From positions 72,698 to 136,697 of the forward strand of contig OZ251531.1 in NCBI GenBank assembly GCA_965243185.1: a DNA stretch of 64,000 bases, written 5' to 3'. Both the position numbers and the translations under genes were made by a program. The DNA is from Dehalococcoidia bacterium. GTDB lineage: Bacteria; Chloroflexota; Dehalococcoidia; Lucifugimonadales; UBA3495. The notes beneath the pieces were generated by a model. The model saw only the letters and a list, made by a program, of their open reading frames with translations, had not been told where the DNA came from and did not search any database. Every line of letters starts with the position of its first letter. Position 1 is the stretch's first letter. Below, in pieces: positions 59,021-63,350 of the stretch.

Positions 59021-59821
59021 TTAGATGAACTTGTCCTCGCGCAGGCGGAGGGCCAGTTTGCGGCCGGCGTCGGCGGGGTCATCGCCCTCGATGATTTCAC
59101 ATTCGGCATTGCTGACCGGGACAAAGAGGTCATGGAGGGTGAGGCGCGGTTCGAGTTGGGCGGCGTCGATGCCGAGGTCGGCTTTGCTCCAGATGGTGGG
59201 GCGTTTGCGGGTGGCGGCCATAATGCCGCGGAGGGTGGGATAGCGGGGTTGGCCGAGTTCGTTGCTGACGGTGACCAGGGCGGGACGGGGGACGGCGACC
59301 ACTTCGTAGCCATCGGGGATGAGGCGCTCGACGATGACTTGGTCGGCGGTGATGTCCACTTTTTTGCCCAAGGCGACGCAGGAAATGCCGAGGAGTTCGG
59401 CGATGCCTAGCGGCACTTGGGCGTTATCCCAATCGGAAGACTGCCGGCCGCAGATGATGAGGTCGAAGCCGTCGAGTTTGCGGAGGGCGGCGGCGAGGAG
59501 TTGGGCGGTAAAGAAGCTGTCGACGGTGTTGGCGAAGGCGTCATCCTGAAGGAGTACCAGTTCGTCGGCGCCCATGGAGAGGGGCTTTTTCATCACATCG
59601 AGGGCGAAGGCGGGGCCGGCAGAGATGACGGTGACGGCGGCGTCCTGGGCGTCTTTGATGCGGAGGGCGGCTTCGACAGCATTTTCGTCGAAGCCGTTGA
59701 CGACCGGGGGGATGTTGGCCGGAGGGACAACCTGCTTGGCGTTGGGGTCGATGTGAAAGGCGGCGGCGGGCATTTCAGGGTCGATGACCTGCTTGGCCAG
59801 GACGGCGATTTTAACGGGCAT
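59021..59821 (-). CDS. etfB: electron transfer flavoprotein beta subunit
   Basis: KQVIDP, NGFDENAVEAALR, LSMGAD, GRQSSD and NELGQPRYPTLRGIM motifs. Confidence 0.97.
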   Translation of the reverse strand: MPVKIAVLAKQVIDPEMPAAAFHIDPNAKQVVPPANIPPVVNGFDENAVEAALRIKDAQDAAVTVISAGPAFALDVMKKPLSMGADELVLLQDDAFANTVDSFFTAQLLAAALRKLDGFDLIICGRQSSDWDNAQVPLGIAELLGISCVALGKKVDITADQVIVERLIPDGYEVVAVPRPALVTVSNELGQPRYPTLRGIMAATRKRPTIWSKADLGIDAAQLEPRLTLHDLFVPVSNAECEIIEGDDPADAGRKLALRLREDKFI

Positions 59822-59867: not shown

Positions 59868-59897
59868 AATATAGCACCAACCGGCTTGGGGTGTCAA
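59868..59897 (-). promoter_or_regulatory. sigma70-type promoter of etfBA
   Basis: TTGACA-18 nt-TATATT with TGn extension. Confidence 0.65.
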
Positions 59898-59909
59898 TGT
59901 GATGGAGGC

Positions 59910-60985
59910 GATAGCGTTGCATTTTAGGTGGTTTGGTTGAGCAAGCCCCGGGTTTGCAGCAAAGCCAGCAGGTTATGCTCTGACCAGACCGTCCCCAATC
60001 GCTCCCGCCGGCGCAACTCCCGATTGTAGCGTTCCAGGCGGGAAGTAGTCCGGTAGGCAACCTCTCCCGTAGTCCAATACTGCCGGCCGGCGGTCAATGC
60101 CTTGTCCAGCCAGTAAGCGGCGGCGCCCTCGGTCAACTCCATTATTTGACCGGCGTAGCTCTGGGCCGCCGCCGCGCTGTCAGTCAACAGCAGTTGCCGG
60201 GCGGCGGCCAAGCCGGCCTTCCCGATATTCCGTCCATATTCCCGCAGCAGGTGAAAGATACACAGCTGATGCGGCGCCGCCCGGCCGTACACCCACTGGA
60301 TGCCGGCCGCAATGGCCCGGTCGCCGTCGCTGACCAGATGTCGGGGTGGCGCGGCTCCGGACTGCTCGGCCAACTCCAGGGCCGCCGCCCAAGGCCCGAA
60401 AGTCGCCAAGACCGCCCCGGTTTCGTCCCGGATTACCTTCAATTCCTGAGGGCCCTGCCGGGTGCGCGTCCATAAACCATCCAGTTCCCACACTGCCCCC
60501 GGCAACCGGGGCCGGGTCAAGGCCAACCGCCGCAGCCAGCGACACAAGGTGCTTTTGACACAACCCACCCACTGCCCCGCTTGGGCGTAACTCAAACCCT
60601 GGGCCGCCAGGCTCAAAGCCCGGTCCCGAGTTTTTTTGAGAACCGTTGGTAACGAACCTCCGGCCCCAGCAGCGCCGCGCCGCCCGCCAGTTGGCGACAT
60701 TGCCCACAACGAAACACCGGAACCGCTATCCGGATGGGACCATAGGACGTGACAATGGTGCGCTCATAGCGATGGTGGCGGTGCATCGCCAGAGCGCACT
60801 GAGCACATCGGGGCTGATAATGATCCAGGGCTTGTTGCAGCTTCGCCTGCAACTGGAGCGGAATTTCCTGCTCCAGTTGGGTCTCCAAATCGTCCAGCAA
60901 TCCCATGACAGCGCACCTCCCGTCAACCAGCAAGGCCGGCCCTTTCCCCATTCTACAACTAAACCACCTAAATCGGAACGCTATC
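59910..60985 (-). mobile_element. IS256-superfamily insertion sequence, copy 1 (1076 bp)
   Basis: 30-bp imperfect TIRs GATAGCGTTGCATTTTAGGTGGTTTGGTTG / CAACTAAACCACCTAAATCGGAACGCTATC; left TSD GATGGAGGC at 59901-59909. Confidence 0.88.
59924..60906 (-). CDS. transposase (Zn-finger OrfA fused by -1 frameshift to DDE OrfB), copy 1
   Basis: OrfA CAQC…CGQC; A7 slip site at 60631-60637; OrfB ELDG, VSDG, QLCIFH and RTTSRLERYNRE motifs. Confidence 0.8.
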
Positions 60986-61006
60986 GATGGAGGATAGCGT
61001 TGCATT

Positions 61007-61989
61007 TTAGGTGGTTTGGTTGAGCAAGCCCCGGGTTTGCAGCAAAGCCAGCAGGTTATGCTCTGACCAGACCGTCCCCAATCGCTCCCGCCGGCGCAAC
61101 TCCCGATTGTAGCGTTCCAGGCGGGAAGTAGTCCGGTAGGCAACCTCTCCCGTAGTCCAATACTGCCGGCCGGCGGTCAATGCCTTGTCCAGCCAGTAAG
61201 CGGCGGCGCCCTCGGTCAACTCCATTATTTGACCGGCGTAGCTCTGGGCCGCCGCCGCGCTGTCAGTCAACAGCAGTTGCCGGGCGGCGGCCAAGCCGGC
61301 CTTCCCGATATTCCGTCCATATTCCCGCAGCAGGTGAAAGATACACAGCTGATGCGGCGCCGCCCGGCCGTACACCCACTGGATGCCGGCCGCAATGGCC
61401 CGGTCGCCGTCGCTGACCAGATGTCGGGGTGGCGCGGCTCCGGACTGCTCGGCCAACTCCAGGGCCGCCGCCCAAGGCCCGAAAGTCGCCAAGACCGCCC
61501 CGGTTTCGTCCCGGATTACCTTCAATTCCTGAGGGCCCTGCCGGGTGCGCGTCCATAAACCATCCAGTTCCCACACTGCCCCCGGCAACCGGGGCCGGGT
61601 CAAGGCCAACCGCCGCAGCCAGCGACACAAGGTGCTTTTGACACAACCCACCCACTGCCCCGCTTGGGCGTAACTCAAACCCTGGGCCGCCAGGCTCAAA
61701 GCCCGGTCCCGAGTTTTTTTGAGAACCGTTGGTAACGAACCTCCGGCCCCAGCAGCGCCGCGCCGCCCGCCAGTTGGCGACATTGCCCACAACGAAACAC
61801 CGGAACCGCTATCCGGATGGGACCATAGGACGTGACAATGGTGCGCTCATAGCGATGGTGGCGGTGCATCGCCAGAGCGCACTGAGCACATCGGGGCTGA
61901 TAATGATCCAGGGCTTGTTGCAGCTTCGCCTGCAACTGGAGCGGAATTTCCTGCTCCAGTTGGGTCTCCAAATCGTCCAGCAATCCCAT
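61007..61989 (-). CDS. transposase (Zn-finger OrfA fused by -1 frameshift to DDE OrfB), copy 2
   Basis: As copy 1; A7 at 61714-61720; OrfA 61696..61989. Confidence 0.8.
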
Positions 61990-62032
61990 GACAGCGCACC
62001 TCCCGTCAACCAGCAAGGCCGGCCCTTTCCCC

Positions 62033-62061
62033 ATTCTACAACTAAACCACCTAAATCGGAA
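62033..62061 (-). promoter_or_regulatory. putative transposase promoter overlapping the IS terminal repeat
   Basis: TTCCGA-17 nt-TAGAAT on the minus strand, upstream of OrfA ATG 61989 (same in copy 1). Confidence 0.5.
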
Positions 62062-62084
62062 CGCTATCGATGGAGGCGGGATAA

Positions 62085-62113
62085 TTGACACCCCTTAACC
62101 GACCGGCTAACCT
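62085..62113 (+). promoter_or_regulatory. sigma70-type promoter of the downstream lipoprotein gene
   Basis: TTGACA-17 nt-TAACCT. Confidence 0.65.
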
Positions 62114-62151
62114 TGCCACGGACTAACTGCCGCCTGACTTGGAGGGAAGAA

Positions 62152-63171
62152 ATGCTGACCGCCCGCTCTTTGCCTCAACCCCTGTTGCTGACCGCCTTGT
62201 TCCTGCTGCTAACTGCCGCCGCTACGATGCTGGCTTGCGGGCCGGCGGAACCTACCGCTACCCCGCGCCCTACCAACAGCTATCCCAATCTGGCCGCCAG
62301 CCTTCAGGATGTGGTTCGGAAATACGAATCCGGCGAACTCTCTGAAAATCAAGCCGCGGCTTTAATCTTGGCCCATCACGGCGCAATGGTGCTGGTGCAG
62401 GTTGACCTGTCCGCCAACATTGACGCCGTGGATACCTGGATGGCGGAACAGGAAATTTCCCCGCGCCACAAGAACGCCAGTTATGCCCCGCCCCACATCT
62501 ATGCCTATGTGAAAGTATCCTTGCTGGGGGCTTTGTCCCAGCGAGATGGCGTCAGCATGGTCAAATCGCTCAGCGATCAATTTGGTCCGAACGTGCTTTT
62601 GCCGAATCCGCTCGGCGGTGAGATTGGCAACGGAGCCAGCGGACAATCTGACCTCGGAGACCCTATATTGCCGCTCTGGCTCAAAGGCTACCCCTACCCT
62701 CGTTTAGACAGTAAGCTCGAGTATGTAGTATACCGTTATGAGAACGGGAAGTTAACCGAAGCCGAGGCCGCCGCCGAATTTGACGACTATCAGGGAACAG
62801 CAGTGCTGGTGATAGTCGAGCTACTGGCTGACGGCGATACCGATGCCGTTGTTGCTTGGCTGAAAGGCAAGGGCATTACCCCTACCCACGTATATAAAGG
62901 CGAGGAGTTTCCCGACCAAATTACCGCCTATGTGCCATTATCCCTAATGGGTGTATTATCCCAGCAACCTGGAGTCCATGACGTATATTCCCCGCTACCT
63001 TTCCGTCCCCTCATCGAGTCGCCCACCGGCAAAGCTAGTAACGCTGGCAGAGTAGCCCAATCCACTACCGGACAAGGAGTAGCAAAACGCGAAGCTGACC
63101 ATTGGCATACATCTACCCTTGGCGGCTACGTCGGCAACGGTATCGAGATTGGGATAATCGACACCCTCTAA
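62152..63171 (+). CDS. lipoprotein with two propeptide-like repeats ending at the start of a subtilase (S8) domain; probably truncated
   Basis: GGAGG RBS; MLA-CG lipobox; two ~95-aa repeats; ends ADHWH…G.GIEIGIIDTL-stop. Confidence 0.7.
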   Translation: MLTARSLPQPLLLTALFLLLTAAATMLACGPAEPTATPRPTNSYPNLAASLQDVVRKYESGELSENQAAALILAHHGAMVLVQVDLSANIDAVDTWMAEQEISPRHKNASYAPPHIYAYVKVSLLGALSQRDGVSMVKSLSDQFGPNVLLPNPLGGEIGNGASGQSDLGDPILPLWLKGYPYPRLDSKLEYVVYRYENGKLTEAEAAAEFDDYQGTAVLVIVELLADGDTDAVVAWLKGKGITPTHVYKGEEFPDQITAYVPLSLMGVLSQQPGVHDVYSPLPFRPLIESPTGKASNAGRVAQSTTGQGVAKREADHWHTSTLGGYVGNGIEIGIIDTL

Positions 63172-63350
63172 CCAGCCGGCTAACCCTATCCCTGATAACT
63201 GACCCGATTATGCCACCAGTCAATAACGATTAAAGGGCCTTGGGCAGTTTGGGGCGGGCGGCAAGGGTTGGCGTTGTATAATTCGGGGGTGGAAATCGCC
63301 GGCAATTTGACCATCCGGCAATAAGTTCAGGATGAGCGGGAATTAGGGTA

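Follow-up and report, generated by a model that had tools for sequence, protein, structure and literature searches.

The DNA that we analyzed is a window of 64,000 nucleotides (positions 72,698 to 136,697 of contig OZ251531.1) from a Dehalococcoidia bacterium. The source genome (assembly GCA_965243185.1; G000) is a single contig of 3,374,202 bp, which we will call C1. Between an etfB-like gene (59021-59821) and a gene that starts near 62113, the window contains a head-to-tail dimer of an insertion sequence (IS) of 1076 bp. The two copies are in direct orientation, with the right end of one and the left end of the other abutted across just 7 bp. From left to right, the locus reads ...CAATGT, GATGGAGGC, GATAGCG...CGCTATC, GATGGAG, GATAGCG...CGCTATC, GATGGAGGC, GGGATAA, TTGACA... 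(Table 1). An initial annotation of the window had described this arrangement, with two copies that appeared identical and a spacer taken from the first 7 nucleotides of the flank at the right end. The arrangement is an exact match to 59901-62077, the copies have 0 differences across their 1076 bp, and GATGGAG does match the flank, with an ambiguity at the eighth base: the G at 60993 is also the eighth base of the flank (62076), so the spacer has 7 or 8 bases depending on how this G is assigned. With a period of 1083, identity begins exactly at 59910 and stops at 60993. If single-stranded, the junction could fold into a hairpin of -25 kcal/mol. We scanned the whole 3.37-Mb genome, and the dimer is its only kilobase-scale tandem duplication; it lies far from the contig ends.

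Table 1. Features of the IS dimer, its genes, and the adjacent promoters (positions in the window)
Feature	Position	Strand	Support
Target-site duplication, left copy, 9 bp, GATGGAGGC	59901-59909	.	single uninterrupted copy in congener G001
IS copy 1, 1076 bp, ends GATAGCG...CGCTATC, with imperfect inverted repeats of ~30 bp	59910-60985	-	sequence comparison
Junction spacer GATGGAG, 7 bp, the first 7 bases of the flank beside the window-right (transposase-start) end	60986-60992	.	
Abutted-ends junction (30-nt end, 7 nt, 30-nt end), a near-palindrome	60956-61022	.	
IS copy 2, 1076 bp, identical to copy 1	60993-62068	-	
Target-site duplication, right copy, 9 bp, GATGGAGGC	62069-62077	.	
orfA of copy 1, 97 amino acids, ATG at 60906 with GGAGG 8 nt ahead of it, CxxC...CxxC zinc-finger-like motifs	60613-60906	-	
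A AAA AAA (T7 in + strand terms), slippery run at which a -1 shift joins orfA to orfB	60631-60637	-	
orfB of copy 1, helix-turn-helix and DDE catalytic domain	59924-60637	-	Pfam Transposase_mut, HTH_23
Targeted promoter's -35 box, TTGACA, 16 nt away from the end of the IS, driving the gene that starts near 62113	62085-62090	+	same geometry elsewhere
TTGACA-18-TATATT, divergent promoter for the etfB-like gene; 13 nt separate its -35 box from the left end of the IS	59868-59897	-	

The rest of the genome shows what the duplications of this IS normally look like. There are 25 full-length copies (97-100% identical to each other), along with one internally deleted copy of 453 bp (C1:321761-322213) and several 100-bp derivatives that contain only the ends. 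The 23 full-length copies outside the dimer fix the termini as GATAGCG...CGCTATC. Among those 23, 18 have a 9-bp duplication (one of these reads as 10 bp, from a chance extra match), another has one mismatch in its 9-bp duplication, and in two the duplication is 8 bp. With the full-length copies and the 100-bp derivatives taken together, there are about 20 duplications of 9 bp, 3 of 8 bp, and none of 7 bp. Furthermore, in a congener (G001, from the same genus and ~90% identical in this region), which has just one partial copy of the IS, the site is uninterrupted (...GTGTCAATGTGATGGGTGTTGGGATAATTGACACC...). Since duplications elsewhere are 9 or 8 bp and never 7, and since the site is empty in the congener, we interpret the outer 9-mers as a single target-site duplication around the whole dimer. 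By the same reasoning, the 7-bp spacer is not a normal duplication. The two copies in the dimer are sisters, as the closest other copy has 3 differences from them and every other copy has at least 3.

The IS also has a preferred kind of target. We oriented the insertion sites by the element and compared the flanks beside the end where the transposase starts, for 24 sites. The consensus is N9 (the duplication), N7, TTGACA, N17, TATAAT, which holds at most of these sites. Flank position 17 is a T at 23 of the 24, and 10 of them match TTGACA at five or more of its six bases, as compared to a background of 0.4% (P about 1e-18). Sites that share this promoter geometry include the dimer (62069-62115 in the window) and C1:1823316, 1596648, and 2141616. 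Judging from these flanks, the IS inserts 16 bp upstream of predicted sigma-70-type -35 boxes, in a fixed orientation. Promoter-directed, oriented insertion has been described for TnGBS, ISLre2, and ISKra4, in a survey of prokaryotic Mutator-like transposons (PMC3942029). At the dimer itself, the target site lies within an 11-nt inverted repeat, GGGGTGTCAAT ... ATTGACACCCC (59888-59898, 62082-62094), which is made of two divergent -35 regions. The promoter block on the right-hand side, GGGATAATTGACACCCC..CCGGCTAACC (62078-62112), recurs 1073 bp downstream (63151-63185) with 86% identity, where it precedes an apparently paralogous gene for a secreted protein.

Four of the 100-bp derivatives, which resemble miniature inverted-repeat transposable elements (MITEs), are at C1:333727-333827, 2576115-2576214, 2603117-2603216, and 2622268-2622367. 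Duplications of 8 or 9 bp surround two of the derivatives, and in two the flank has TTGAC at position 17, so the same transposase mobilizes them. Of the full-length copies, ~14 share 99% identity or more with the dimer copy. In addition, two pairs of dispersed copies are identical (C1:195347 with C1:1754818, and C1:983385 with C1:2439074), which indicates very recent transposition. The initial annotation took the dimer to imply current activity. Recent activity of the IS family is well supported independently of the dimer, by these near-identical copies and identical pairs, the intact duplications, the mobilized derivatives, and the empty site in the congener.

The IS encodes a transposase in two overlapping open reading frames (ORFs), which are joined by a -1 frameshift at a run of seven A. 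The conceptual fusion product has 327 amino acids. It is colinear, through the slip site (RFSKKT), with a single-ORF relative (P0002; 329 amino acids and 61% identity), and orfA aligns with the N-terminus of the fused relatives. Relatives in another genome (G135) are open frames of 338 amino acids. So, as judged from the alignments, the predicted frameshift site is validated by the fused relatives. In one copy in the genome (C1:1469530-1470604), the slippery run reads T6 rather than T7. The 25 copies have no other indel, and this one is either a genuine mutation that inactivates the copy or an error in the consensus of a homopolymer. In the numbering of the fusion, the catalytic residues of orfB are D143, D194/D196, CxxH, and E292/E297.

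The match of orfB to Pfam's Transposase_mut is above the curated cut-off (28.9 bits as compared to 21, E = 7e-7). We also compared the protein to the NCBIfam models for ISH6, IS256, and ISKra4 (the set has no model for ISMich2). The best match was ISH6, from p-MULT 2, at 60.8 bits as compared to a cut-off of 240; IS256 (p-MULT 1) scored 41 bits as compared to 150; and ISKra4 (p-MULT 4) scored 25.6 bits as compared to 205, with the N-terminus only. A search of PDB sequences with a profile of the family found no transposase. The predicted structure was more informative. The AlphaFold model of P0002 has a mean predicted local distance difference test score (pLDDT) of 75, most of the catalytic core lies at 80-98, and the top five PDB matches in a fold search with this model were all the transposase of ISCth4, from the IS256 family (E = 3e-6 to 9e-5). 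As modeled, the DDE core of P0002 is RNase-H-like and is interrupted by a helical domain, like that of ISCth4. Our first guess, from the 9-bp duplication, the frameshift at a run of A, and the zinc finger, had been the IS1 family; there was no match to an IS1 model in Pfam, and the signal was from Mutator and ISCth4 instead.

IS256-family elements have a single ORF and are about 1.2-1.5 kb (ISfinder). This element fits the IS256 family in its duplication length, and at 1076 bp, with two ORFs and the A7 frameshift, it departs from the family in size and in organization. Prokaryotic Mutator-like transposons have 8-9 bp duplications and a 3'-terminal C (PMC3942029). Because of the match to Transposase_mut, the fold matches to ISCth4, the 8-9 bp duplications, and the 3'-terminal C, we place the element in the IS256/Mutator (p-MULT) superfamily, as a compact and frameshifted member that fits no named family model. 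It shows what is given as the trait of p-MULT 4, which is oriented insertion 13-17 bp upstream of sigma-A promoters (as in ISKra4) or a -1 frameshift (as in ISMich2). We found ~136 relatives in metagenome assemblies, all without names. The combination of minimal size, frameshifting, and promoter targeting in one element is a more unusual aspect of this IS than the dimer is.

How did the dimer form? In copy-out/paste-in transposition, a nick frees one 3' end of the element, which is then linked to the same strand a few bases beyond the opposite end, so that the spacer between the ends copies the flank (PMC7780238, PMC3299598). We lean, with modest confidence, toward the view that the joint was made in this way by the element's own transposase and was then fixed as an (IS)2 dimer. 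A single copy would first have inserted 16 bp upstream of the -35 box, which would have created the 9-bp duplication GATGGAGGC. Later, the transposase would have nicked the 3' end at the window-left end, which is distal to the transposase start, and linked it, on that strand, to a position 7 nt beyond the other end. Copy-out/paste-in opens with just such an asymmetric strand transfer, and the product would be an end, 7 bp copied from the flank, and an end. The joint could have been fixed in the chromosome by an attack on the sister chromosome, followed by replication. Alternatively, a free circle of 1083 bp could have recombined, by homology, into the identical parent copy. These two routes would give the same sequence and are not separable from it, although the initial annotation had named the sister chromosome. 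Either way, the outcome would be an (IS)2 dimer with a potentially reactive end-to-end junction.

Our proposal explains the boundaries of the dimer. The duplicated unit starts at the first base of the IS and ends 7 (or 8) bases past its last base, which points to the chemistry of a transposase rather than a random duplication. And since the spacer comes from the flank beside the transposase start, the donor would be the other (window-left) end; in ISCth4 and IS256, either end can be the donor (PMC7780238). The length of the spacer also fits. ISCth4 has a duplication of 8 bp and junction spacers of 6-8 bp, with 6 bp being the best, and IS256 has a duplication of 8 bp and junction spacers of 5, 6, 7, or 19 bp (PMC7780238). 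Circles of p-MULT elements with duplications of 8-9 bp have flank-derived spacers of 6-10 bp (PMC3942029). A 7-bp spacer in an element with 9-bp duplications thus fits the family pattern of a spacer that is ~2 bp shorter than the duplication. Furthermore, tandem dimers of IS256 do form (Prudhomme 2002, as cited in PMC7780238), a dimer such as (IS30)2 can last in the chromosome (PMC9333248), and both routes of fixation are described for IS30, IS911, and IS256 (PMC9333248; Prudhomme 2002 via PMC7780238). The initial annotation had stated that IS256, IS30, IS21, and IS911 use end-to-end junctions with flank-derived spacers, which is borne out for IS256/Mutator members, with spacers of 5-10 bp (PMC7780238, PMC3942029). 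It had also called the dimer a captured transposition intermediate. As for the junction chemistry, this fits the family; as for the capture, a second insertion at the same promoter is a real alternative, which we discuss below and which follows from a target rule that the annotation had not noticed.

Several observations weigh against our proposal. One is the strict promoter targeting, by which a second insertion could plausibly have produced a head-to-tail pair. Another is that we found no promoter spanning the GATGGAG joint at a score of at least 8 of 12, unlike the junctions of IS911, IS30, IS256, and ISCth4. (The sole promoter match near the joint, TTCCGA-17-TAGAAT, resides within one IS end. 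A promoter that is assembled across the junction, with the -35 box in one end and the -10 box in the other, is common in end-to-end junctions and is not universal.) For read-level evidence, we relied on Logan contigs, which are contigs of cleaned k-mers, from 8 runs, and we compared these with the locus and the junction at 80-97% likeness. An end-spacer-end junction, with any spacer, was absent from these contigs, which can lose real junctions, and a query of the run index with the junction alone found no run. Scans of public genome and metagenome collections for end-N(0-20)-end arrangements gave 11 matches, all of them chance palindromes without surrounding IS sequence, so these scans identified no other junction of this IS. 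And no tandem pairs were seen among the relatives' copies.

We considered that the second copy might instead be an independent insertion at the same promoter, which would be a hot spot, with an atypical 7-bp duplication (GATGGAG). The promoter and the 16 bases upstream of it survive the first insertion, so a second copy could land at the same coordinate and in the same orientation. An end, GATGGAG, an end, and then GATGGAGGC is exactly the outcome of a second insertion with a 7-bp duplication. The target rule (N9-N7-TTGACA-N17-TATAAT), which holds at most of the 24 sites and at the 100-bp derivatives (P about 1e-18), foretells the same orientation and the same boundary away from the promoter, as observed. 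Also, the duplication length does vary (8 vs. 9 bp), and the identical dispersed pairs imply that very recent hops happen. However, a 7-bp duplication was not seen at any of about 23 informative sites. The target rule itself foretells a 9-bp spacer, and a tandem with a 9-bp spacer is absent from the genome. The donor would need to be the neighboring copy itself, which is 1 of about 13 young copies. Finally, there is one case of an 8-bp duplication with a clear -35 box, and in that case the boundary on the promoter side is fixed and the far boundary has moved, which is the opposite of what a second insertion needs. Overall, a second insertion seems unlikely, though it is the main rival to our proposal that the element's transposase made the joint.

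Another explanation is that the dimer is an artefact of assembly or of consensus. The chromosome might really carry just one copy, or two that are 9 bp apart, and the apparent dimer or its 7-bp joint could be due to a mis-join, a 2-base consensus error, or a minor structural variant. No 31-mer of the junction occurs in the run index, or in the Logan contigs of any run that has the locus. In particular, run X1 has both of the outer junctions, at 12-14x, and lacks the inner joint. However, the Logan contigs demonstrably drop real short paths through junctions beside this high-copy repeat: runs X3 and X4 lack the left outer junction as well, even though the IS is clearly inserted there. These two runs contain an empty-site allele, identical to the window up to 59905 and then continuing with GTGTTGGGATAATTGACACCCCCTAGCC, as in the congener. 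Its depth is 16x in X3 and 68x in X4, as compared to about 50x and 400x for the flanks, so closely related strains with and without the insertion appear to coexist. Once the empty-site allele makes a branch, the Logan contigs drop real junctions, and so the absence of a junction from them is uninformative. Counting copies by k-mer depth is not an option either, because the dimer copy is a mosaic of alleles that are each found in other copies, which means that the dimer copies have no private 31-mer inside the IS. On the other hand, a single 3.37-Mb contig that resolves 25 near-identical repeats of 1 kb implies long reads, which would be able to span 2.2 kb. Assemblers do not invent new junction sequences, and both the lack of any other kilobase-scale tandem duplication and the distance from the contig ends argue against an artefact. 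We view an artefact as quite doubtful. A look-up of the exact protein of the etfB-like neighbor, for the same locus in other assemblies, found no record. Judging by their labels, the runs in which the locus occurs would be sponge metagenomes.

A tandem duplication without the transposase, by replication slippage or unequal exchange at the shared G or at the 9-bp duplications, is very improbable: there is a 1-base microhomology (G at 60993 and 62076) at the boundary of the duplication, but end points set at random would not coincide with the first base of the IS and with a position 7 nt past its last base, nor does the genome have another kilobase-scale tandem duplication. In particular, unequal crossing-over between the 9-bp duplications would leave a spacer of 9 bp instead of the observed 7, so we rejected it.

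Two other copies of the IS, in inverted orientation at C1:1539635-1540710 (+) and C1:1681372-1682447 (-), do not have duplications of their own. Instead, TTTTGCCAC is found both to the right of one copy and to the left of the other, and the remaining flanks are GATGGCGCG and AGTGGCGCG. This suggests an inversion of ~142 kb by recombination between IS copies. However, a contig from run X20 has the second of these two arrangements around an apparently single-copy IS, which clouds the history of this inversion.

If the dimer is real, then it is a natural, chromosome-borne record of asymmetric strand transfer by a copy-out/paste-in element. For an uncharacterized compact Mutator-like IS, the distance of the attack (7 nt) and the donor end could be read without an experiment. 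A real dimer would also mark the element as probably still moving in an uncultured symbiont. More generally, the spacer of a head-to-tail IS pair should be compared with the element's own duplication length before the pair is called an intermediate. And a transposase this small, with insertions at a constant distance ahead of sigma-70 promoters, would be a convenient model for promoter-directed insertion, maybe with wider use. We can also imagine a bolder scenario, which we think is improbable as a whole. The dimer would be a heritable (IS)2 junction, present at the level of the population in an uncultured sponge-associated bacterium and not a rare variant, and it would be the hyperactive donor behind the burst to 25 copies. 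Together with the 16-bp landing rule, this would give a minimal Mutator-like transposase, of 327 amino acids, that performs both copy-out junctions and promoter docking. The element would then represent a new compact p-MULT group that joins the frameshift of ISMich2 with the targeting of ISKra4 and TnGBS.

End-to-end junctions as such are already well known for the IS256/Mutator superfamily. Like IS256 and ISCth4, this element has a Mutator-like DDE transposase with the ISCth4 fold (as predicted), 8-9 bp duplications, and ends that are abutted over a flank-derived spacer of 5-8 bp, or ~2 bp below the duplication length. Tandem dimers and circles are documented for Tn4001/IS256 (Prudhomme 2002 and Loessner 2002, as cited in PMC7780238). 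Unlike IS256 and ISCth4, the element is just 1076 bp, vs. 1.3-1.5 kb; it has two ORFs with a -1 frameshift, instead of one ORF, and a Cys-rich region at the N-terminus; we found no junction promoter in it; and its score with the IS256 model from NCBIfam is far under the cut-off. Also, this element is strictly promoter-targeting, while the insertion of IS256 is reported to be random.

The pair resembles (IS30)2, (IS911)2, (IS21)2, and (IS2)2 as well, which are head-to-tail pairs with a short spacer and, in those systems, a reactive end-to-end junction (PMC9333248, PMC3299598). Those dimers can form when a sister replicon is attacked or when a circle re-enters beside or into the parent copy, and the chromosomal forms can last for generations (PMC9333248, PMC3299598). 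However, their transposases are unrelated to the one described here, their spacers are 1-3 bp, and they have junction promoters, of which we found none here.

The closest parallels in targeting are with p-MULT 3 and 4 (the group of TnGBS, ISLre2, and ISKra4). These target sigma-A promoters and, like our element, insert in a fixed orientation, 13-17 bp ahead of the -35 box (PMC3942029). Duplications of 8-9 bp and a 3'-terminal C are further traits in common, and their circles carry flank-derived spacers of 6-10 bp. The part of the survey that we consulted does not mention tandem dimers. In p-MULT 3, the right inverted repeat (IRr) is beside the promoter, while here it is the end where the transposase starts, and the score with the ISKra4 model from NCBIfam is far under the cut-off. 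The -1 frameshift is shared with the ISMich2 group instead. Thus, promoter targeting and frameshifting, which are found in separate groups among the p-MULT elements described there (PMC3942029), occur together in this element.

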